Both the position numbers and the translations under genes were made by a program. A DNA stretch of 64,000 nt from assembly GCA_040767085.1 (NCBI GenBank), contig JAXGPF010000006.1, forward strand, positions 288,001 through 352,000, given 5' to 3'. The DNA is from Kiritimatiellia bacterium (GTDB taxonomy: Bacteria > Verrucomicrobiota > Kiritimatiellia > JAAZAB01). The notes under the pieces are model-generated. The model saw only the letters and a list, made by a program, of their open reading frames with translations, was not told the origin of the DNA and did no database searches. Numbering within the stretch: the first letter of the stretch is position 1; every line of letters begins with the position of its first letter. Positions 19,494 to 29,950 of the stretch are shown here, in pieces.

Positions 19494-20110
19494 TCAATTT
19501 ACGGCACATTTGGCGCCGCGCCGGCCGGCCGACGCGGCGGCGGCGCGCTGGTTTTACCATGACGGAACTGATGGTTGCCGCCGGCATTTTCAGCCTGGTG
19601 TCAGCGGGCGCCATCAGCCTCTACCTGGTGTGCCAAAGGGTCTGGCATGCCACAACCATGAACATCCATGCCACGCGCGAAGTCAGCCTGGCTTTGAACA
19701 AAATAGTTTACGGAATGGGCACCAACCTCGGCCTGCGGGCCGCCATCCGCGTGACGCTGCAAACCAATTGCAGCGGCTGGCGCGCCGGCGCGGGGTATCC
19801 CCTGGCGGCCAACAGCACGTCCCATGGCATCACCGCCGCCGGCACGCCGGACGGCAGTTGGCGGATGGTGGTGCTGAACACCAACGGCACCCAATGGATA
19901 GACTACAATATCAAAGCGAGCAACCTCGTTTTCTGGCCCGTCCCCAACGCCACCAACAGCCGGCTGCAGCTCGGTAATTATATTGCCAGCGCGCAGGTGG
20001 CGACAAACCTGGACGGGGTCAACATCAGCCTGACGGCCGTGCGGCGGCATGGGCAGTTGCGCGGCGCTTACGGGGCATCTACCTTCATCAATTTGCGCAA
20101 TCGTAATTAA
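19490..20110 (+). CDS. Prepilin-type protein, PilW/GspJ-like (triplet 1)
   Basis: RRRRAG-FTMTELMVAAGIF; overlaps the previous stop (ATGA). Confidence 0.82.
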   Translation: MINLRHIWRRAGRPTRRRRAGFTMTELMVAAGIFSLVSAGAISLYLVCQRVWHATTMNIHATREVSLALNKIVYGMGTNLGLRAAIRVTLQTNCSGWRAGAGYPLAANSTSHGITAAGTPDGSWRMVVLNTNGTQWIDYNIKASNLVFWPVPNATNSRLQLGNYIASAQVATNLDGVNISLTAVRRHGQLRGAYGASTFINLRNRN

Positions 20111-20132
20111 CCCAGACCATGCGTTGCATCCG

Positions 20133-21806
20133 ATGAAAACACAGGCGACAAATTCCGGGGCGGTTTTAGTGGCAGTCATCAGCTTTACCGCGCTGGCGGC
20201 CATCCTGGCCGCCAGCATGCTGTCCGACGGCATGACGCAAATCCGGCTCGCCCGGCGCCAGGTTCTGATGGAGCAGGCCTTTTACCTGGCGGAAGGCGGC
20301 GCGGAACAGGCCGTGGCTTATATCCGCAACGGCCAGAATGTGCCCGGCGTGGTCACGGGCGCGTTTATTTACCCCAACAACACCACCGGCAAATTCACGG
20401 CAGTGGTCGTCCAGGCGTTCGACACCGCTAACGGCGGTTCAACCGGGACGAATTCCGTATCTGGCAGCCTCCGCATCAACCCCAACAATTCTTCCCAGCA
20501 CGAGTTCCTGCTGGTCAAACCCGACGGGACCACCATCACCCGCGACGACTTGCAGGGCGACACCACGGCTTACACCAGCACGCCTTGCGTCTATTACACC
20601 GGACCGGCGGTGATGATCCGGGTCAAGCCTATGGGCAACGGCAGTCAGAACACTCTTGTGGTCAATGGCGCCGTCTATCCCCTGCTCAATGCCAATACCT
20701 ACGACCTGGTTTCCCTGGACATGCGTGTCCAGGTTTACAATGACGGGCGCAACCAGGGGAACGGGCGCGCCAACGGCCAGTGGTGGCTCGGCAGCATTGA
20801 CGGCGACGAGGTGACGATCGGCGAGCAGACCAGCGGCGGCGGCGGGCCGATCTCGCGTCAATTCACGATCTTTTCCACCGGCCGGATCGGCGGCGCCACC
20901 CGGGCGGTAATCCTGGAAGGTGTACAGCAACAGGCCTGGTCCCGCTTCGCCCTTTGGTACAACAACTCCGCCGGCCCGATCTGGATCGGCAGCGGCGAGG
21001 TTTTCAACGGGCCGGTCCACGCCAACACCCTGATTTACCTCGACGGCAATCCGATTTTCAACGAATTGCTGTCTTCCACCGCGGCCAACTGGGGGCCCGG
21101 CAGCGATTTAGCGCAGGTGCAATTCAACGGCGGCACCTGGCTGAACGCGCCGGCCGACACCATGGCGACCGTGGTGTTCACTAATTTGCGGGCATCCGCC
21201 ACCATGACCGTCACCGGCCTGACCCACATGACCATGGCCGGCACAAATCTCTTCATCACCAATGCCCGGATGGGCTGGAACAACTACCGCCTTGACTCGC
21301 CGTCCAACGGCATGCTCTACGTGGAAACCGCCAACAGCGGCTTGAATCGCAGCGGCATTATCAATATCGGCGGCCAACTGGACGGGCGCCTGACGGTCGT
21401 GGCGGACAACAGCATCCAGATCACCAACCACCTGACTTACGCGGTCCACCCGACCAACAACTCGAATGACGCCCTGGGGTTGATCGCCCGGAACGACGTC
21501 GAAGTCCGCGCCAACGCGCCCGCCAATCTCAATGTATTCGCGCACATCATCGCCTGCAATACCGACAACAGCACGTACGAAAGCGGCTTTTTCGTCGAGA
21601 ATTACAGCACCCGTTTCGGCTGCGGCTTCCTGAACGTCTATGGCGGCATCGTGGAAAACAACCGCGGCGCCGTCGGCACCACCGCCGGGCGGGGTTATTC
21701 CAAGAATTACACTTACGATGAACGGTTCCGCTTCGCGCCGCCACCCAATTACCCGACGGTGCTGGACACCTATCAATGGAACAATTGGAGGGAGAAAGCG
21801 TTATGA
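20133..21806 (+). CDS. PilX/GspK-like large minor pilin with DUF4900-like C-terminus (triplet 1)
   Basis: NSG-AVLVAVISF lacks E5; QAFYLAEGG, FNGPVHAN and GYSKNYTYDERF...PPNYP. Confidence 0.8.
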   Translation: MKTQATNSGAVLVAVISFTALAAILAASMLSDGMTQIRLARRQVLMEQAFYLAEGGAEQAVAYIRNGQNVPGVVTGAFIYPNNTTGKFTAVVVQAFDTANGGSTGTNSVSGSLRINPNNSSQHEFLLVKPDGTTITRDDLQGDTTAYTSTPCVYYTGPAVMIRVKPMGNGSQNTLVVNGAVYPLLNANTYDLVSLDMRVQVYNDGRNQGNGRANGQWWLGSIDGDEVTIGEQTSGGGGPISRQFTIFSTGRIGGATRAVILEGVQQQAWSRFALWYNNSAGPIWIGSGEVFNGPVHANTLIYLDGNPIFNELLSSTAANWGPGSDLAQVQFNGGTWLNAPADTMATVVFTNLRASATMTVTGLTHMTMAGTNLFITNARMGWNNYRLDSPSNGMLYVETANSGLNRSGIINIGGQLDGRLTVVADNSIQITNHLTYAVHPTNNSNDALGLIARNDVEVRANAPANLNVFAHIIACNTDNSTYESGFFVENYSTRFGCGFLNVYGGIVENNRGAVGTTAGRGYSKNYTYDERFRFAPPPNYPTVLDTYQWNNWREKAL

Positions 21807-22201
21807 ACGGCGCCTCCAATAGCGGCAGAACCGATGCTCCCGCCCCGCTGGTGATTTTCACGGCCGTGGTTTTGATCGCGGCGGGCGTGGGCGCTTCGGT
21901 TTGGACGTTGTGGCAATCCCTGCGCAGCGCGCCTGTCGCCCCGCCGGCGGCCGATGCGCCGGCGGCGCCGTTGCTGGCTTCGCCGCTTCAGCAGTCCTCC
22001 GCCTCCGGCGCGCCGGCGTCAACCTCGGCCCCGTTGCGGGGTGGCGAATTCAACACGGACTTTGAGCAGATGCGCCAACGCGAAGCGACTGGGCAGGCGG
22101 CGGCAGCCGTCCTGCGGCGCGCGCGGAAGGCCGGCGCCGGTTCACCCTGGACCGAGGATCAGGTCCAAGCCGTGGAACGCGGGGACTTGGCCATCCGTTG
22201 A
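21803..22201 (+). CDS. Small single-TM hypothetical protein inside the pilin cluster
   Basis: ATGA overlap with the PilX1 stop; one hydrophobic helix followed by an Ala/Pro linker. Confidence 0.6.
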   Translation: MNGASNSGRTDAPAPLVIFTAVVLIAAGVGASVWTLWQSLRSAPVAPPAADAPAAPLLASPLQQSSASGAPASTSAPLRGGEFNTDFEQMRQREATGQAAAAVLRRARKAGAGSPWTEDQVQAVERGDLAIR

Positions 22202-22244
22202 GAACTGCCAGCTCCGCGCGGCCACAGGCCACACTGTAAGACTT

Positions 22245-22655
22245 ATGCGCCCAAACGCTAAAAATGGATTCACCATGGTGGAGATGATGGTCGCCGGAAC
22301 GATTTTCCTGTTGTTCTGCGCGGGATTCTTCTCCGCCTATATCGCGGCCATCGGCGCGCAGCGAATGGCGGCGAACCATTACCGCGCGCTTTGCCTCGCC
22401 CGCAACCGCATCCAGCACGCGCGTGCCTCGGAGTATTCCAGCCTGGAATTGCTGGCGGAAACCTCCAACGCCGTTGACGTCGTCGGCAATCCCGACCCGG
22501 CGGGCGGATTCCGGCGCAGCACCACCATTATCCCGGACACCAACACCACCGCCAATATTTCGCAATTTATCGTGCAGGTGTGGTTTCCAGCGCACCGCGG
22601 GCGTTTAAGCTCCACCCCGGTGGAACAGACCACCTTGATTGCCAACCCGATGTGA
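22245..22655 (+). CDS. Prepilin-type protein, PilV/GspI-like (triplet 2)
   Basis: MRPNAKNG-FTMVEMMVAGTIF; about 136 aa. Confidence 0.85.
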   Translation: MRPNAKNGFTMVEMMVAGTIFLLFCAGFFSAYIAAIGAQRMAANHYRALCLARNRIQHARASEYSSLELLAETSNAVDVVGNPDPAGGFRRSTTIIPDTNTTANISQFIVQVWFPAHRGRLSSTPVEQTTLIANPM

Positions 22656-24742
22656 TGCAAAATATGCCTTCTTACGCCAAATCATTGCCGCTGGTTTACC
22701 GCGCCGGTTTCACCGCGGTGGAACTGATTATCAGCGCCGCCATCATGGCGCTGGTCATCAGCGGCGCCACCGCCACTTTCATCTACGGGCTGCGCACCTG
22801 GCGCGCCGAAACCATCACCAGCGAGCTGCACCAGGACCTGGAAGAGGCGATGGAGCACATTCGCCACGATTTGCGGCTCTCCAGCGTGGGCGTGGGCCTG
22901 ATGTCCTTTTACCCCACCAACGCCGCCGAATACACCGCCATCAGTTTCCCGCTCTCATCTCCCGCCGGGGACAACCTCCTGCGGCGCGATTTGAACACCA
23001 ACAGTCCGAATTACGGACGCATCATCTGGGATCAAACAGTGATTTACCATGTCCGGCCCGGGACCCCCGACGAGCTGCTGCGGACGGTTTTCACGCCGCG
23101 GAACAGCAATGCCGCGCCGCACGATTTTTACACTCAATTGCAGAAAGTGGCCCTCAGCACCAATTTCGCCGGCGTGCAGGCTGCCGGCCTGGCGGGAGAG
23201 AGCGCCAGCAGCCGGGTAGTGTTCCGGAACCTGGTGAGCCTGCGCATCCGTCCCCCGGAATTGCTGTTTGACGGCTACGCTCCCGCCTACCAGCGCGCGC
23301 GGAACTTGAACTGGGGCAGTGTCGTTCTGGGCGGCGGGCACAACATTTTAACCTTCACCGTGGTGAACAAAAACACCAACAGCACCGGTTACAAGGTCGG
23401 CATTGACTGGTTTTCGCTCAGTCCCAGCGCCAGCCGGCGCGAAGGCGAAATTTTCCTGCCAAACGACAGCCACCCGGCGGCGCCTTATTTCCAGCACACG
23501 CTCAGCGGCGGATCGGTTTCGGCCCAGGACATGTCCGCGCACGGCGCCGGCTGGAGCGGCAACTGCCAGTTGACCTATGACGCCGGCGCCGCCGGCAATT
23601 CCATCGCCTTCAAGGTCTTCAACGACCTCTGGTGCGACTCCCAGTTCGATGCCCCGCCAGGCATCCTGGCCAGCAATCTCAGCCGGAAGTGCGACACCAA
23701 CTTCCTGGCCCAGCCGCCCAATATCACAGACTTTGTCATGGACATGGATAAAGGCGTTGCATGGATGGCCGATTACTGCGCGGTAGCCAACCCCGGCGGC
23801 ATCTCCCTTGCAGCCGATGCGCCGGTGGTCAATATCATTTATGGCGGCAGCAGCAACATACCGGGCAACATCATTTACAACGGCGCCCGCGCCCGCCTGA
23901 ATTTTCAGGCTTCCACCAACGGCCAGCTTTTCATCGAAAACGTGCAGATCATGCAACAGGCATCCGGAATCACCCCGGTGTCCGGCAGCGCCAGGGCGGT
24001 AACCTTCGGCGGCAACTCCTCCACCCATGTCAACCTGGGCGGATCGGCCTGGAGCGATTGGGTGGACTTTGCGGTGGACCGCAACATTTCCTGCCTGGTC
24101 AGTTTCACCCTGAAAACGGAGGCATCGACGCTGGCCAACGCCAAGACCTGGCCGGCCGCCTCGGCGACGCCGCCCATGTCGTACCTGAATGGCACGCCGC
24201 ACCACGAGATCATCGGGCTGGGCGCCATCGAAGTTTCGTATCCCTCCAACGCCGTTTACCTCTCCGGCATTTTTGACACCCGCCTGGCAAATCCATCCTA
24301 CCGCCGGCTGAACTGGACTGAAGCCACCCCTTGGGGGACCGACATTGACATCCGCCTGCGCTCGGGCGACCAGCGCGACTTGAGCGATGCCTGCGCCTGG
24401 GAACCGTATTCCTACTTCCAAGGCTACCAAGATAATTACATCGGCGGCATTGCTGGCGGACGGTACGTCCAATACGAAGCTTTGTTCCGCTCGTCATCCC
24501 CGTACCAGACCACGCCCAAACTGCGCGATACCACCATCACCTGGCATGGGGCCACGGGCCTGGTGGACCTGGTGGTCGGGTTCGCCCGCGGACCGGACTA
24601 CGGGATCGTCAAGGCCGAGGTCAACGGCCAGCAGTTCATCAAGGGGATCGAGGTGGAAATGGAGATTTTCAAAACCGGTCCGTTCGGCACTAACCGCGTG
24701 GCCGGCCTGATGGAAGTCCGTCCGTTGAACACCGGGAAATAA
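22655..24742 (+). CDS. Very large PilW-like prepilin with inserted beta-rich domains (triplet 2)
   Basis: RAG-FTAVELIISAAIMALV; TGATG coupling; AMEHIRHDLR helix; about 695 aa. Confidence 0.8.
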   Translation: MQNMPSYAKSLPLVYRAGFTAVELIISAAIMALVISGATATFIYGLRTWRAETITSELHQDLEEAMEHIRHDLRLSSVGVGLMSFYPTNAAEYTAISFPLSSPAGDNLLRRDLNTNSPNYGRIIWDQTVIYHVRPGTPDELLRTVFTPRNSNAAPHDFYTQLQKVALSTNFAGVQAAGLAGESASSRVVFRNLVSLRIRPPELLFDGYAPAYQRARNLNWGSVVLGGGHNILTFTVVNKNTNSTGYKVGIDWFSLSPSASRREGEIFLPNDSHPAAPYFQHTLSGGSVSAQDMSAHGAGWSGNCQLTYDAGAAGNSIAFKVFNDLWCDSQFDAPPGILASNLSRKCDTNFLAQPPNITDFVMDMDKGVAWMADYCAVANPGGISLAADAPVVNIIYGGSSNIPGNIIYNGARARLNFQASTNGQLFIENVQIMQQASGITPVSGSARAVTFGGNSSTHVNLGGSAWSDWVDFAVDRNISCLVSFTLKTEASTLANAKTWPAASATPPMSYLNGTPHHEIIGLGAIEVSYPSNAVYLSGIFDTRLANPSYRRLNWTEATPWGTDIDIRLRSGDQRDLSDACAWEPYSYFQGYQDNYIGGIAGGRYVQYEALFRSSSPYQTTPKLRDTTITWHGATGLVDLVVGFARGPDYGIVKAEVNGQQFIKGIEVEMEIFKTGPFGTNRVAGLMEVRPLNTGK

Positions 24743-24860
24743 CGCAAGAGGCAAAGAACCAAAGGAACAAAGCCGTGTGGCGCCAAGCCGGCGGCGCGGC
24801 CCTGATCATCCGTGCCTTCGAAACCTGGCAAAGCAGCGCCGCGCCAGGGGAGGAACAGCC

Positions 24861-25961
24861 ATGTTTAACAACACTTTATCGCGCAGCCGCGCCGGCCGCC
24901 GCGGCTCGGCGCTGGTGACCGTGATGTGCGTATCGGCGGTGCTGCTGCTGGCCAGCATGGTCATGGCTTACATGACCCGGCAGGCGCTGGCGCGGGCGCA
25001 GCGGATCAACACCGGCGCACGGGCCCTGGCCGTCGCGGAAGCCGGCATTGCCGACATGGTTGCGCTGCTGAGCACCAACTACCTCATGTGGCGCAACACC
25101 AACCACAGCGCCCAGTTCGGCGGCGGCGTCTACACGGTGAACAGCCAGACTCAATCCAACGGCAATGTGCTGCTGGTCAGCACCGGCGTGGTCGGCAGCG
25201 TCGCCCGTTCCACGATTATGGAACTGCTAGGCACTTACCAGGATTGGAACGATTCCCTGTTCCGCCTGGACGGCGTGATTCTTTCCGGCGGCGATGTGCG
25301 TTTTTCCTCGGCCGCTTACGCAATCAACGGCAACGTGCATGCCAATGGCAGCGTGCTGGCCAGCGGCGGCGCGAAAAACGGCGATTTCATCAGCAATGCG
25401 GTCGTCACGGCCGTGGGTTCCGTCGCAAACTTGAATAATGTTGACGCCGACAACCTTATCGGGGGCGAACCTAACCGGGTGCTGCCGGCCTTCGACTTCG
25501 ACAGTTACCGCCAGATGGCTCTCTCCAACGGCCTGTATTACAGCAATTCCATGACCTTCAACGGCTGGGACGCCCGACCCTCCAACGGGGTGGTCTACGT
25601 CAACGGCGATGTGGTGATCGCCAATCACAGTTCTTTAGTAGGCACGCTCGTGGCCAACGGCAACATCCAGGTGCAGAATAATTTCACTCAGACCAACTTC
25701 CCGGGGCAGACCAACTGGCCGGCCTTGCTGAGCACCGGCAACGTCACGCTGCAAAACAAGGAAACTTACCATGGCATCATCTATGCCGCCTTGAATGTCA
25801 GCATCCAGAACAACATCACCTGCAATGGCGGTATTATCAGCGGCGGTTACACCGAAATTCAGAACCACGGCACGATGAACCAGCCCCCCGGCTACCCCCC
25901 CTGGGATCCGCTTAATCCCTCCGTGCCGCCGGAAGTGATCGTCGGCGGCTGGCTGAAGTAA
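24861..25961 (+). CDS. PilX/GspK-like minor pilin with beta-solenoid C-terminus (triplet 2)
   Basis: GGAGG RBS; RRG-SALVTVMCV lacks E5; ALAVAEAGI; GNVHANG, GVVYVNGDV and GIIYA repeats. Confidence 0.8.
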   Translation: MFNNTLSRSRAGRRGSALVTVMCVSAVLLLASMVMAYMTRQALARAQRINTGARALAVAEAGIADMVALLSTNYLMWRNTNHSAQFGGGVYTVNSQTQSNGNVLLVSTGVVGSVARSTIMELLGTYQDWNDSLFRLDGVILSGGDVRFSSAAYAINGNVHANGSVLASGGAKNGDFISNAVVTAVGSVANLNNVDADNLIGGEPNRVLPAFDFDSYRQMALSNGLYYSNSMTFNGWDARPSNGVVYVNGDVVIANHSSLVGTLVANGNIQVQNNFTQTNFPGQTNWPALLSTGNVTLQNKETYHGIIYAALNVSIQNNITCNGGIISGGYTEIQNHGTMNQPPGYPPWDPLNPSVPPEVIVGGWLK

Positions 25962-25992
25962 ACGGGCGCGCCATGCTGCGCCCAAAATACTT

Positions 25993-26940
25993 TTAATTAA
26001 TGATATCCGCTGGGAGTCCGGCGGATGCCAGCCGGGCATACCCCGCGCGGGTAAGTTTCCGGATCAGGCATCGGCATTTATGCGTTATGCCGGCCGCCTC
26101 GATTTTAGCGCGCAACCTGGAACAAGCCGGCGTTTTTCCCAAATGCACTCCCGCCTGTTCGAGCAGCATCAGATATGGCAGCGTGATATGCAAATGCGGA
26201 TTGGGCGGGGCGCCGGGCGCGAAATCGTCCAAGTCATCGCGTATCTGATAGGCCTGCCCCAACCACCGGCCGGCATCGGCAAGCATGGATAATACGATTT
26301 CCGGCTTGTCGGCCAAGACGGCGGCCGCCTGCAAGGGGCAGGCGAAACTGTAACTGGCGGTTTTAGCGGCAAACAGCCGCAGCGCCCGGCCGGCATTCAG
26401 CCGGCACAAGCCGGCAGCCGCGCATAATTCCGCCGCCTGCCCCAACGCCGCGGTTTCGGCGGCGCCGGCAACCAGCCGCATAATGCGGATGCTTTTCCGC
26501 GCGGGTATCGGCAGTTCGGCCACCAGGCGCATGGCATGCGCAAACAGCCAGTCGCCGGCAGCCAAGGCCATATCCGTTCCGGTCAGGGCCGTGTTATGCA
26601 GCAGGGCGTTGAAACGGCAATGCGCGGCAGGCGCGCCGCGCCGGTAACATGCGCGATCCACTATGTCGTCATGGATCACGGCAAATTGGTGAAGCAATTC
26701 CAACGCCACCGCCAACTGCCGGCAGGCAGTGTCAACCGGACGGCCATAGGCGTGGACCGCGGCCAGAAACAGACGCGGCCGCATGCGCTTCCCGCCGCGG
26801 CAGATATAATCGGCCAGCACCCGCCGTACCTTTTCCGGAAGCGCCGGACCGCCCGGGCCGGCGCGCGGAATCCTGTCCAGATGGGCTCGCAACTGGTTTT
26901 CAAAATCGCTGTTATTTCCCATTCTGTCCTTTTTGCGCAT
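25993..26940 (-). CDS. Polyprenyl diphosphate synthase with short-chain/GGPP-type signature
   Basis: GGKRMRP, FARM FAVIHDDIVD, RRG, GQ, KTA and SARM QIRDDLDD; start overlaps the menA stop. Confidence 0.85.
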   Translation of the reverse strand: MRKKDRMGNNSDFENQLRAHLDRIPRAGPGGPALPEKVRRVLADYICRGGKRMRPRLFLAAVHAYGRPVDTACRQLAVALELLHQFAVIHDDIVDRACYRRGAPAAHCRFNALLHNTALTGTDMALAAGDWLFAHAMRLVAELPIPARKSIRIMRLVAGAAETAALGQAAELCAAAGLCRLNAGRALRLFAAKTASYSFACPLQAAAVLADKPEIVLSMLADAGRWLGQAYQIRDDLDDFAPGAPPNPHLHITLPYLMLLEQAGVHLGKTPACSRLRAKIEAAGITHKCRCLIRKLTRAGYARLASAGLPADIIN

Positions 26941-27821
26941 CAACGGGGCGCCGCCAATCCAGCCGCCAGCAGCAATCCAAACACCATCAACCCGCGGGCG
27001 GCATGAATGTCTATGTCCGCCGGTATTTTTTCCGCAAAAGACATGCGCGCCGGCCGCCACAGGAAGGGCAAGGCGGCCAGCGGAAAAAACACGCCGGGCA
27101 TGTCAATGCCGCCAACCCCGTAAAGCGGCGCCAGCGCCAGAAAGGCGGACGCCACCAGGAACGCATAACCGAACGGCGCCGCCCGGCCCAGGTGTTGGGC
27201 CATGGTCCGGCAGCCGGCGTCGGCATCGCGGCGGCAATCGCGCAGATTGTTGGCATATAGCAGGGCGGCGGCCATGAATCCGGCCGGCATGCCGCACCAC
27301 CAGGCGGAGGCAGTCAGACGCGCGGTCAGGCCATAAAACACGGCGGCGGTCAGCCATGGCCCCGTCAGCGCGAACACCAGCAGCTCGCCGCTGGCGCGGT
27401 ATTTGAGTTTAAGCGGCGGCGCGGTATAAAAGAATCCGCCGGCCAGGCCGATTGCTCCGAATCCCCACAGCCAGGCGCCGCGGGCGATCAGCGCCGGCAA
27501 GGCCACCACTGGAGCCGCCAGCAGCAGGATTACACCCAGCCGCAGCGCCTGGCGCGGACGAAGCAATTGTTCGGCCAACGCCCAGGTGGAAGGCGCCGCA
27601 CCCGGCTGGTCCAGGCCGGTGCGGAAATCGTAATAGTCGTTGATTACATTCGTGCCGCCATGCAGCGCCAGCAATGCCAGCAACAGCAAGGGCAGGTATT
27701 GCCAGTCCGCCGGCATGTCTGACCGGGCGGCCAGGATGGCCGCCTGCAATCCCGGCAGCGCCGCCACCGGGAAGGCATAGGCTCTCAGAATCAGCAGCCA
27801 TTTGCGGATGCGGGACATCAT
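26940..27821 (-). CDS. menA: 1,4-dihydroxy-2-naphthoate prenyltransferase (UbiA family, MenA/DmkA-like)
   Basis: NVINDYYDFRTGLD, YTAPPLKLKY..GE and ANNLRD...D..AG.RT; multiple TM helices. Confidence 0.85.
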   Translation of the reverse strand: MMSRIRKWLLILRAYAFPVAALPGLQAAILAARSDMPADWQYLPLLLLALLALHGGTNVINDYYDFRTGLDQPGAAPSTWALAEQLLRPRQALRLGVILLLAAPVVALPALIARGAWLWGFGAIGLAGGFFYTAPPLKLKYRASGELLVFALTGPWLTAAVFYGLTARLTASAWWCGMPAGFMAAALLYANNLRDCRRDADAGCRTMAQHLGRAAPFGYAFLVASAFLALAPLYGVGGIDMPGVFFPLAALPFLWRPARMSFAEKIPADIDIHAARGLMVFGLLLAAGLAAPR

Positions 27822-28255
27822 CCCTTCTTGCGGCCGGCAATCAAAACATCCAACGACCACCGGCCGCCACCCTTCAACATGAACAGCAATGCCGGAAAAA
27901 GATACAACAACGCCATTTCCCGGCCGGCAAACGGGGCGCCGGCATGCGCCACGAAGGCGGCCACCGCCATGGTAACAACAATCAGGAACGATGCCGGAAC
28001 CGTGCAGGCGCCCAACATCAGCAGGATGCCGCCAATGCCTTCGGCGGCGGCGGCCATGAATCCCCAGAACTCCGGCGCGCCGGGCATGCCTGTGCCGCTC
28101 ATGATGCCGCCCACCCCGCGCCAGGTTTCAACGCCGCCGGCCAGTTTCGGCAAACCGTGCGTCATCATCCCCGCGCCGATAAAAACGCGCAGCAAAAAAT
28201 ACCCCGCATCGCCGCCCGCTCCGCCTAACCACGTCCCCATCAGTATTTTTTTCAT
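27818..28255 (-). CDS. DoxX family membrane protein
   Basis: LLRVFIG..M..HG..K, AEGIGGILLMLG, M.VA...H and GGGRWSLD; GGAGAGG RBS. Confidence 0.88.
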   Translation of the reverse strand: MKKILMGTWLGGAGGDAGYFLLRVFIGAGMMTHGLPKLAGGVETWRGVGGIMSGTGMPGAPEFWGFMAAAAEGIGGILLMLGACTVPASFLIVVTMAVAAFVAHAGAPFAGREMALLYLFPALLFMLKGGGRWSLDVLIAGRKKG

Positions 28256-28274
28256 CCTCTCCTCCTGTTCCTGG

Positions 28275-29444
28275 TTACACCGCTGGCCCCGCACCGCGCC
28301 AGCCGCGCGGCGCCAGCGCATGTTTGGCAAAGAACATAAAATTTAAAAAGCTGAAATTGCGCAAGCCGCACATAAAATAATGCAAACGCAAGCCCGTACG
28401 CCCGCATAGCGGGAGCGCGTCAAAGGCCCGGCCCACGCTGTCATCCGCCAGCGGTATCACCCACCCCAAATCCAAGGGATAAAAACGACGGGGCGGTTGG
28501 CCGGCAAGGGCGCGGGCAATATTGGCGCCGGCGCGCGCGCCGGCGTAGATGGAGAAATTCACCGCCTTGCGCAAATAACCCTTCCGGTCTTGCACCGCCG
28601 CCGCATCGCCGGCAAAAAAAACGGCGGGGTAGCCCGGCGCCGCCAGAAACTCATTCACAATGACCCGCCCGTCCGGCAGGCGTTTGATCCGCCCCTTGAT
28701 CCGGTTGATGGCGGCGGTCGTGCCTTCCGTGCGACACAGGAAGACATCCGCAAAATTTCTGCCCGACGCCAGGTGCGCGCTTTTTCCGTCGTATAATGTA
28801 ATTCTGTCGTTAACCAATAAATCGAAATCATTGCGCGTCAGCCAGCGTTGCACGCGCGCCGCCTGGCCCGCAGAGAGAAACGGCAAGATTGATGCATTGC
28901 GTTCCACCAGCGTGAACCGACAGGTTTTGTGCGCGCGGCGCGCAGTATCCGCAAGATTGGCGGCCAGTTCCAAAGCTGTATAGCCCGCGCCATGGAACAG
29001 GCAATGCGGCGTTGATGCGCGGGCAAGATACCGGGGGAATTCGCATCGAATCCGCTCGGCTTCCTCAATGTCCGCCATGGGAAATGTGGGCCCGCTGAAT
29101 TGCGCCGGGTCGCCTGGACGGCTGACCGACCCGGCGGCGCAAATCAGATAATCATAAGCAATTTTCCCCGCCGGCGTGTCCACCGTGCGCGCATCAAGGT
29201 CCACCGCTTCAGCCGCAGTCTGCCGCAGATCAATCCCGGCCGGCAAACGCCGTTCCAGCCGGCCTTCAAGCCGGCGCCGATCCAAGCGCCCGGCGGCATA
29301 TTCGGGCAGCAAAGGCAGCATGACGGATTGGCCGCGCGGGTCCAGCAGAATAACCCGGCATTGCCGCCGCCGCTGGGCGCGGCGTAAAGCGTGCGCCGCC
29401 GCCACGCCGGCAAAGCCGCCGCCGAGTATCAAGACCAACGGCAT
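28275..29444 (-). CDS. Type II NADH:quinone oxidoreductase-like FAD-dependent oxidoreductase
   Basis: ILGGGFAG, PLLPEYAAG, YDYLICAAGS, GAGYTALELA and VFFAGDAA; the start could extend to 29492. Confidence 0.8.
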   Translation of the reverse strand: MPLVLILGGGFAGVAAAHALRRAQRRRQCRVILLDPRGQSVMLPLLPEYAAGRLDRRRLEGRLERRLPAGIDLRQTAAEAVDLDARTVDTPAGKIAYDYLICAAGSVSRPGDPAQFSGPTFPMADIEEAERIRCEFPRYLARASTPHCLFHGAGYTALELAANLADTARRAHKTCRFTLVERNASILPFLSAGQAARVQRWLTRNDFDLLVNDRITLYDGKSAHLASGRNFADVFLCRTEGTTAAINRIKGRIKRLPDGRVIVNEFLAAPGYPAVFFAGDAAAVQDRKGYLRKAVNFSIYAGARAGANIARALAGQPPRRFYPLDLGWVIPLADDSVGRAFDALPLCGRTGLRLHYFMCGLRNFSFLNFMFFAKHALAPRGWRGAGPAV

Positions 29445-29624
29445 CAGTTTCACTCCGGGTTGCATCCATCTCGCCCAAACGCTCATCAGCATTTACATGC
29501 ACCATGGCCGGAATTTACTACATTAAACTACAGCAACTGCTCAAAATAACAAGAAAAATCCGAGACCCGCTGCCGCGAGGACTGCGTCATTCTCGGGAAA
29601 GACGGCTCGGTTGGAGATCACGCC

Positions 29625-29849
29625 CATAACCCGCCCGCGCCAGGTTGCGGCGCTACGGGCAGCAATCCGGATTCGTGTTTCGTCAAAACCACCATAATCC
29701 AGACATTCCGAACCAAAATCCTGATGACGGGAATGCAATCTTCGTCTATACTGAACGGCATGCAAACAGGAATCCATGCCTGCCTCAAAGGCCTGGCGCT
29801 GGAATGAAAGACCGCCCGCGGCCTGAGCCGATGCGTCGGCGGGGTTATG
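29625..29849. other. Approximately 225-bp intergenic element with nested inverted repeats (structured RNA or MITE-like)
   Basis: CATAACCCGCC pairs with GGCGGGGTTATG; GCGCCAGG (29637) pairs with CCTGGCGC (29792); internal hairpins GGCATG/CATGCC and GCCGA/TCGGC. Confidence 0.4.
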
Positions 29850-29950
29850 ATATCTATATGGTTGCCCTTCTGTAAACTGATGTTAAAATATTGACCATGA
29901 TCAAAGCCGCTCCAGGCAATTTTACCGGCGCCGGGCGTGCCGGTGATTCC

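Follow-up and report, generated by a model that had tools for sequence, protein, structure and literature searches.

Organization of the operon

The window, as we call the whole stretch of 64,000 nucleotides (nt) analyzed here, comes from a Kiritimatiellia bacterium (contig JAXGPF010000006.1, positions 288,001 to 352,000 of the forward strand). Its minus strand carries, at 25993-29444, four co-oriented and translationally coupled genes, which encode, in this order, a flavoprotein resembling the type 2 NADH dehydrogenases (NDH-2), a DoxX membrane protein, a MenA-like prenyltransferase and a prenyl diphosphate synthase (P0001 to P0004; Table 1). We consider it probable that these genes form a dedicated operon whose products prenylate an imported naphthoquinone ring and reduce the product with NADH, with DoxX as the membrane partner of the dehydrogenase.

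The open reading frame (ORF) listing and the sequence show that 19 nt separate the ndh stop from the doxX start, and that this gap holds a GGAGGAG ribosome-binding site. At the doxX/menA junction stop and start overlap by 4 nt (ATGA), and at the menA/synthase junction they share 1 base (TGATG). An earlier examination of the letters alone (the sequence-only reading) had placed four packed, co-oriented genes at these coordinates, and both the packing and the positions are correct; the four family names it proposed are upheld by Pfam on all four proteins. Its remark that the codon style looks less native did not hold, because in GC content at third codon positions (GC3) and in an index similar to the codon adaptation index (CAI) the four genes rank at the 30th to 72nd percentile when compared with 1025 long ORFs from the same genome.

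Table 1. Coordinates of the operon and of other features in the window.
Feature	Position	Strand	Remarks
Flavin adenine dinucleotide (FAD) flavoprotein of NDH-2 type, P0001, 389 residues	28275-29444	-	Pfam Pyr_redox_2, 83 bits
DoxX four-helix membrane protein, P0002, 145 residues	27818-28255	-	Pfam DoxX, 54 bits
MenA/UBIAD1-type aromatic prenyltransferase, P0003, 293 residues	26940-27821	-	Pfam UbiA, 97 bits
trans-Prenyl diphosphate synthase, P0004, 315 residues	25993-26940	-	Pfam polyprenyl_synt, 132 bits
Promoter-like site TTTACA-18-TATCAT, 10/12	29847-29876	-	Consensus scan only; ~400 nt upstream of first gene
Long 5' leader or intergenic region	29445-29846	-	Contains dispersed repeat
Terminator-like GC-rich hairpin	25963-25984	-	Directly after last stop; consensus scan only
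Leader repeat, 30-38 nt	29578-29617
Second leader repeat	29523-29558
Region of large pseudopilin-like genes	20049-25961	+
585-residue gene product with DUF4900 domain	20049-21806	+
720-residue gene product with prepilin-type N-terminal methylation motif	22580-24742	+

Conservation of the gene neighborhood

The flavoprotein family was used as the bait to collect 80 loci, one genome per species, and neighboring genes were labelled by BLAST of six-frame ORFs against the four window proteins. The synteny counts rest on these labels; greedy ORF picking mislabels GC-rich loci, and missed DoxX and MenA in the window itself. Three loci with the NDH gene at a contig edge were dropped, and 77 were counted. 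Within 2.5 kb of the NDH gene, a MenA-like gene was found at 55 loci, DoxX at 27 and the synthase at 27, and all four genes occurred together at 12; any of the three partners was present at 62 loci, and none at 15. When only the 49 loci flanked by 2.5 kb or more of DNA on both sides are counted, the numbers were 40 for MenA-like, 19 for DoxX, 21 for the synthase and 44 for any partner. The neighborhood singled out by the sequence-only reading thus recurs elsewhere, and it is conserved well beyond chance, since the same neighbors are found in distant phyla.

By their labels, the carriers belong to the Kiritimatiellia/Verrucomicrobiota, Lentisphaerae, BRC1/Sumerlaeota, Fibrobacterota, Elusimicrobia, Wallbacteria, Muiribacteriota, many Spirochaetaceae, Oscillospiraceae and Clostridium. 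Cultured carriers are Clostridium rhizosphaerae and Tichowtungia aerotolerans, in which the homolog is P0052. In bacteria of the Planctomycetes-Verrucomicrobia-Chlamydiae (PVC) group, the synthase mostly lies divergent and upstream of NDH-DoxX-MenA, and the gene order of the window is also found in BRC1 and Wallbacteria. In spirochaetes the order is NDH-MenA-synthase and then a YceI-like gene, with DoxX missing (Pfam PF04264 for the YceI-like gene; 13 loci, including L083, L091, L094-L096, L101, L105, L109-L112 and L114). At two Lentisphaeria loci (L067, L072), a gene for a MauE-like membrane protein, instead of one for DoxX, precedes MenA-NDH. The YceI-like and MauE-like proteins are lineage-specific accessories where PVC bacteria have DoxX.

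The Firmicutes loci carry a further kind of neighbor. Three Clostridium loci read MenA-CydA-CydB-ABC-ABC-NDH, and three Oscillospiraceae/Eubacteriales loci read NDH-MenA-synthase-CydA-CydB-ABC. This linkage to cyd genes shows that, in these bacteria, the product of the module must be a quinol usable by cytochrome bd, with the flavoprotein as the electron input.

Among relatives of the host, distribution is patchy: of 61 genomes, that of the host among them, 31 have a MenA-like match; within the family 8 of 32 do, and within the genus only 1 of 4, with a weak match. The only close copy is that of G016, with 49-59% identity.

Properties of the four proteins

P0001 contains two dinucleotide-binding Rossmann motifs (GGGFAG at residues 8-13, GAGYTA at 152-157) and matches Pfam Pyr_redox_2 and Pyr_redox. 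When the PDB was searched with the profile of its family, the best matches were classical NDH-2 (Staphylococcus aureus, Caldalkalibacillus thermarum and Bacillus subtilis YjlD, at 1e-51 to 1e-45), headed by the bacterial NDH-2 5na1 at 1.4e-51. The NDH-2 group as a whole scored from 1e-51 to 1e-40, and sister groups followed at ∼1e-28 (FSP1), 1e-25 (coenzyme A disulfide reductase, CoADR) and ∼1e-22 (sulfide:quinone oxidoreductase, SQR). An SQR-like or CoA-disulfide-reductase-like role was rejected, since this order of scores favors NDH-2. The AlphaFold2 (AF2) model of P0001 has a predicted local distance difference test score (pLDDT) of 92, and it superposes over its whole length on the S. aureus and C. 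thermarum enzymes with template modeling (TM) scores of 0.80-0.82, the upper value being that for S. aureus NDH-2 (5na1). The alignment with NDH-2 includes the C-terminal end, where the model has helices at 348-383.

Although P0001 shares with the S. aureus and C. thermarum enzymes the two dinucleotide-binding motifs and the fold over its whole length, it is only ∼20% identical to classical NDH-2. Its subfamily comprises ∼85 database clusters at E values of 1e-110 to 1e-49, after which the scores drop sharply to classical NDH-2 at 1e-18 and worse. In precomputed Pfam assignments, the NDH-2 C-terminal domain (PF22366) is listed for the classical NDH-2 matches only, and not for the subfamily. 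Four invariant residues, R292/A294/N296/F297, are particular to the subfamily and would stand in place of the usual NDH-2 quinone-site motif. By sequence profile and predicted fold, then, the P0001 family is true NDH-2 and constitutes a distinct subfamily.

P0002 scores 54 bits against Pfam DoxX (PF07681, cut-off 23.6), and its AF2 model (pLDDT 84) has four long helices, at 17-39, 61-81, 85-103 and 109-127. The DoxX family has been linked to quinones in the literature. P0002 shares the DoxX domain with the thiosulfate:quinone oxidoreductase DoxDA, but its score against the DoxD model (PF04173) is 18 bits, below the cut-off of 22.7. The strongest fact about DoxX is its adjacency to the flavoprotein gene in 27 loci, together with three distinct NDH-2::DoxX fusion proteins (P0028, P0125 and P0134), which are 43-60% identical to each other. 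P0125 and P0134 were the second and eleventh best matches in an exhaustive search with the profile of the DoxX subfamily; a word-indexed database search for longer fused forms of P0001 and P0002, which has low sensitivity, had returned none. Because of this adjacency and the three natural fusions, DoxX is most simply taken to be a membrane partner of the dehydrogenase, possibly as an anchor, as a quinone site or as the place of quinol re-oxidation toward the periplasm.

In another protein of this DoxX subfamily, P0188, DoxX is preceded by a signal peptide, a ∼400-residue domain bearing one CxxCH heme-binding motif, and one membrane helix. This architecture suggests that certain DoxX proteins may exchange electrons with a redox domain in the periplasm. 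It also places the N-terminus of DoxX on the cytoplasmic side, as does, independently, the order of the NDH-2::DoxX fusions.

Comparisons of the DoxX fold gave little. A PDB sequence search with the DoxX profile returned no match at E ≤ 1, and Foldseek with the P0002 model none at E ≤ 0.001. In VIA-align the best match of the model was the eukaryotic DoxX-type protein NACHO/TMEM35A, at a Z score of 11.6, which is uninformative on chemistry; VKOR and vitamin K carboxylase were dismissed as fold relatives at a Z score of only 5.6, which is inside the noise for helical bundles. Prediction of a complex between P0001 and P0002, both supplied as alignments, scored 0.00, and nothing was taken from it.

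P0003 is assigned by sequence to the MenA/UBIAD1 branch of the UbiA superfamily. Its best NCBIfam models are all MenA, although each score is under the cut-off (NF004751, 115 vs 264 bits; TIGR00751, 61 vs 102 bits). Its only PDB sequence match is UBIAD1, the vertebrate menaquinone-4 synthase, at 5.7e-20 over the full length. Full-length alignment with UBIAD1 and Escherichia coli MenA keeps the Asp-rich motifs, with NDYYDFRTGLD and NNLRDCRRDADAG aligned to their counterparts in both proteins. Identity between P0003 and E. coli MenA is 28%. P0003 scores below every MenA equivalog cut-off, and its predicted substrate is a naphthoquinone head group. UBIAD1 uses a C20 tail, and the same length is predicted for the module of P0003. 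Over 27405-27717, within the MenA-like gene, a landfill metagenome run has, beside an identical contig, another one that differs at 30 of 313 nt; this other contig is that of a related strain or species carrying the same gene in the sample.

In P0004, the Asp-rich motifs are DDIVD and DDLDD, and D91, D92, D95 and D236 are invariant in the family alignment. The stretch LLHQFAVIHDDIVD has a Phe at -5 relative to the first DDxxD, a motif that carries no insertion. A bulky aromatic residue at -5 before the first DDxxD marks the short-chain (C15-C20) trans-prenyl synthases, and by this rule the product of P0004 is predicted to be ∼C20 or shorter, making the short-chain label given by the sequence-only reading plausible. 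At this position, most PVC and spirochaete loci have Phe and three loci have Cys; the long-chain pattern, Ala-Ser, is seen in both aligned cyd-linked Firmicutes loci (L087, L092) and in two others. Modules of the Pontiellaceae type have a divergent synthase in which the second DDxxD is replaced by NDxxD or NDxxx, which is unusual for an active trans-prenyl synthase (L039:3450-4352, L041:6063-6956, L043:82-1005, L044:6000-6926, L051:6018-6935 and L059:6021-6956).

Quinone genes and electron sinks of the host

The host assembly (4.08 Mb in 28 contigs, 95% complete) has no match to the MqnA/MqnD family (PF02621) or to MenB anywhere in the genome. The best genome-wide match to MenD reaches 67 bits against a cut-off of 244, a score of acetolactate-synthase grade, and the best to UbiE/MenG reaches 57 bits against 158. 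P0003 is the only MenA-type protein, the two other real UbiA-family genes both being decaprenyl-phosphate phosphoribosyltransferase-like; there are two trans-prenyl synthases only, P0004 and a farnesyl diphosphate (FPP) synthase, and P0002 is the only DoxX. The absence of genes for 1,4-dihydroxy-2-naphthoate (DHNA) synthesis and of MenG, noted by the sequence-only reading near the operon, therefore extends to the whole of this 95%-complete genome, and neither a second menA nor a complete menaquinone pathway (men, mqn, MenG) was found. With the module as the only visible prenylquinone route and no head-group genes, the ring would have to be supplied externally or made by an unknown pathway.

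Genes for ring synthesis are likewise missing from most other carriers. Two of the genome handles surveyed, G016 and G061, gave identical matches, and the 28 and 31 handles of the two surveys thus stand for 27 and 30 distinct genomes. Over cut-off, MenB was found in 1 of 27 module-bearing genomes and in 1 of 5 further ones, and MqnA/D in 1 of 27. UbiE/MenG exceeded its cut-off in 6 of 30 and fell just under it, at 154-155 bits, in 3 more. Cytochrome bd subunit I was present in 3 of 27, all Firmicutes. From their gene content, some carriers would thus complete true menaquinone, and this host would stop at the demethyl form.

The host has an Rnf cluster and also, at ∼526.1-530.3 kb of G000:C22 on the minus strand (L134:4135-8278), an Nqr-like cluster without NqrA. 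The latter consists of NqrB/RnfD-like, NqrC-like flavin mononucleotide (FMN)-binding, NqrD-like and NqrF-like (2Fe-2S, FAD and NAD domains) genes. None of these subunits reaches its NCBIfam cut-off, and the cluster may encode either an Rnf/Nqr hybrid or an additional quinone reductase of an unusual type, which would not be a quinol consumer. The single ApbE gene and the two FMN_bind genes of the host lie on other contigs than the module, the FMN_bind genes in the Rnf and Nqr-like clusters.

Two NuoH-like genes were considered as signs of complex I and rejected, both being inside six-gene clusters of the Ech-type hydrogenase. These two similar clusters (group 4 hydrogenase-like; L117, G000:C25:197000-214000, and L118, G000:C22:370000-387000) each encode, besides the NuoH-like protein, two antiporter-like proteins, a fused 30/49 kDa-like subunit and a 20 kDa-like subunit with 4Fe-4S, and one of them adjoins an IS200-like transposase gene.

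Candidate expression signals, flanking genes and occurrence

The promoter-like and terminator-like sites of Table 1 are weak candidates: the promoter scan gave 5 sites where 2.0 are expected in shuffled sequence, a match being no evidence of function, and the terminator scan gave 8 against 6.6. An Rfam scan of the operon and its leader found nothing at threshold, the two sub-threshold matches being at chance level. The first leader repeat occurs at 13 other places in the genome, spread over 10 contigs, at 91-97% identity (100% for one short copy), and the second occurs at 2 other places. The metagenome contigs of three runs stop at these repeats, where depth rises.

The genes flanking the module are in the opposite orientation and have no related Pfam families. 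The large plus-strand genes at 20049-25961 (Table 1), upstream in plus-strand numbering, are of a pseudopilin-like type that is common in PVC bacteria and has no relation to the module.

Near-identical DNA was found in metagenomes of landfills, sludge and anaerobic digesters, with 7 runs from 4 studies holding at least half of the sampled words. Contigs of two runs span the whole stretch with zero differences, and one run labelled 'RNA?', which is probably DNA, contributed a single identical contig of 260 nt. The dense communities of digesters and landfills may make a scavenged ring plausible.

Relation to known systems

The closest known counterpart is flavin-based extracellular electron transfer (FLEET). 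Ndh2, DmkA and DmkB of the FLEET quinone branch are encoded together in Listeria monocytogenes and Lactiplantibacillus plantarum, and in L. plantarum the DHNA head group must be supplied externally (PMC9888254). The three Pfam families of this branch, a dedicated NDH-2, a MenA homolog and a prenyl diphosphate synthase, are likewise adjacent in the window, a likeness at the level of protein families. In contrast to FLEET, no EetA, EetB, PplA, FmnB or FmnA was found at the operon by Pfam assignment of the flanking ORFs (the EetA/EetB models were not searched). The operon also differs in having DoxX, a separate flavoprotein subfamily of ∼385 residues and a diderm, anaerobic host.

A second counterpart is provided by the partial menaquinone pathways. 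For gut bacteria with menA alone or menA and menG, an exchange of soluble DHNA has been proposed (PMC4746308). Here, too, the pathway has its late steps but not the early ones. Unlike in those pathways, MenA here shares an operon with a tail synthase and an NADH dehydrogenase of its own and with DoxX, and the host is without MenG or a recognized quinol-consuming enzyme. Quinones are reportedly growth factors (PMC5738691).

Compared with these systems, the module stands apart by a separate subfamily of NDH-2, by DoxX as a partner, by lacking the FLEET flavin parts and by its diderm, strictly fermentative hosts, along with the alternative accessories of other phyla (cydABDC, YceI and MauE-like). 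The sequence-only reading had not recognized the combination as a described system, and our full-text literature searches likewise found no description of the gene cluster; a search for literature on quinones of Kiritimatiellota or Tichowtungia returned, by title, nothing on the subject. Metagenome surveys that score dmkA, dmkB and ndh2 automatically may have counted such genes without comment.

Proposed function

In the scheme that we favor, P0004 would extend FPP or isopentenyl diphosphate (IPP) to a short prenyl diphosphate, predicted to be ∼C20, and P0003 would join this tail to an imported naphthoquinone head group, DHNA or a similar compound. The head group would be imported because both the men and the futalosine pathway are missing from the host and, since there is no MenG, the product would be a demethylmenaquinone-like lipid. 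P0001 would then reduce the quinone with NADH at the inner membrane face, so that the fermenter re-oxidizes NADH, while P0002 would handle the quinone or quinol beside the flavoprotein in one of the three ways considered above: anchor, quinone site, or place of quinol re-oxidation. The linkage to cyd genes in Firmicutes makes the core function, quinone synthesis and reduction by NADH, well grounded. The sequence-only reading had likewise proposed a kit of MenA, synthase and NDH-2 working on scavenged DHNA, and this is the most economical reading, because there is a single MenA-type gene, no men, mqn or MenG, and conserved synteny. Of that earlier interpretation, the families, the synteny and the core built on a scavenged head group thus stand, and the non-native codon style does not.

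Several observations weigh against this scheme. All four proteins are under the NCBIfam equivalog cut-offs, which leaves their substrates unsecured. The PDB sequence matches of P0004 are a mix of long- and short-chain enzymes, and Phe at -5 is not universal in the synthase family, some modules having Cys or Ala-Ser. The NDH gene stands without any of the three partners nearby in 15 of 77 loci, and 14 loci keep NDH, MenA and the synthase without DoxX, so that DoxX is not essential to the core function. No cytochrome bd, NqrA, SdhB/FrdB-type subunit or fumarate reductase was found in the host genome, which gives the electron path no known end. Finally, imported DHNA is an assumption for free-living anaerobes of many habitats, the alternative being an unknown head-group pathway.

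Alternative readings

The operon could also be part of an undescribed 'orphan quinone loop' in fermentative anaerobes of many phyla. A private short-chain naphthoquinone, made from a scavenged ring, would be reduced inside by NDH-2 and re-oxidized at the outer face by DoxX, or by a YceI- or MauE-type protein, and the electrons would pass to periplasmic or external acceptors. We regard this as possible but doubtful. If true, DoxX would be a quinol-oxidizing outlet without a cofactor, the first defined mechanism for the large DoxX family, and fermenters without a classical respiratory enzyme would have a respiration-like sink for NADH.

A FLEET-like role, in which electrons would run from NADH to a short-chain demethylmenaquinone and out through DoxX, in place of EetA/EetB/PplA, to iron minerals, humics or partner cells, seems to us no less doubtful. 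The match of three of the four families to Ndh2, DmkA and DmkB, the predicted short tail and the lack of an internal quinol oxidase in the host are consistent with export, as are the YceI-like gene directly after the module in 13 spirochaete loci and the fusion of P0188, a relative of the DoxX subfamily, to a secreted CxxCH domain. However, no FMN-binding, ApbE or cytochrome gene lies within or beside the operon, the ApbE and FMN_bind genes of the host being elsewhere, and P0001-P0004 contain no [ST]GA[ST] or CxxCH motif. In addition, the fusions bind DoxX to an electron-input enzyme, not to an outward-facing acceptor, and no route over the outer membrane of this diderm cell was seen.

Under a third alternative, the module would defend against oxygen or oxidative stress, its reduced naphthoquinol pool reducing O2 via cytochrome bd, or trapping lipid radicals and protecting periplasmic thiols. 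The animal FSP1/vitamin K system and a mycobacterial DoxX complex offer parallels. This role would suit the six Firmicutes loci in which the module is joined to cydABDC, and a quinol that has no respiratory consumer in the host genome; all carriers are anaerobes by label, one cultured carrier is named 'aerotolerans', and the solved structures related to the flavoprotein include FSP1 (∼1e-28). Yet bacterial NDH-2 are far closer to P0001 than FSP1 is, 24 of the 27 module-bearing genomes, including the host, have no cytochrome bd, and no linked peroxidase, superoxide dismutase or sulfurtransferase gene was found, all of which makes a defensive role unlikely.

We consider it quite unlikely that the clustering is meaningless and that the genes serve ordinary quinone salvage, with MenA and the synthase feeding the sole quinone pool for general electron transport, drawn on by other enzymes such as the Nqr-like complex, and with NDH-2 as one more entry to it. 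The host does have an NqrB/C/D/F-like cluster, but this is without NqrA, has all its subunits under cut-off and would be a quinone reducer rather than a consumer, and no quinol-oxidizing enzyme was found in the host. Genomes with late men genes only are a known pattern (PMC4746308), and UbiE/MenG, over cut-off in 6 of 30 carriers and at 154-155 bits in 3 more, suggests that some of them make true menaquinone; against this, the tie between the NDH-2 subfamily and MenA, which holds from phylum to phylum, speaks for a dedicated pair.

The last alternative, that no quinone is involved, with P0003 prenylating some other self-made acceptor, aromatic or not, and the flavoprotein modifying the resulting lipid or the head group of that lipid (for instance through reduction of a precursor that is then prenylated), is highly improbable: it could draw on the sub-threshold equivalog scores of all four proteins, on the head-group genes missing in nearly all carriers, which would be natural if DHNA were not the substrate, and on the invariant R292/A294/N296/F297 in place of the usual quinone-site residues, but among solved structures P0003 has a single relative, UBIAD1, which is a menaquinone-4 synthase, the MenA motifs and the full-length NDH-2 fold are kept, and the cytochrome bd link of the Firmicutes needs a real quinol.

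Significance

If the dedicated quinone operon that we favor is the correct reading, many anaerobes that are supposed to be purely fermentative, among them Kiritimatiellia, Lentisphaerae, soda-lake spirochaetes, Oscillospiraceae and Clostridium, would keep a small quinone system that depends on the ring precursors of their neighbors. Models of digesters, sediments and guts would then gain a cross-feeding dependency and a hidden sink for NADH. The analysis defines a new and easily recognized subfamily of NDH-2, and it supplies DoxX, a very large family of unknown mechanism, with a concrete, testable partner in the fused or adjacent dehydrogenase. The cultured carriers make the idea directly testable.

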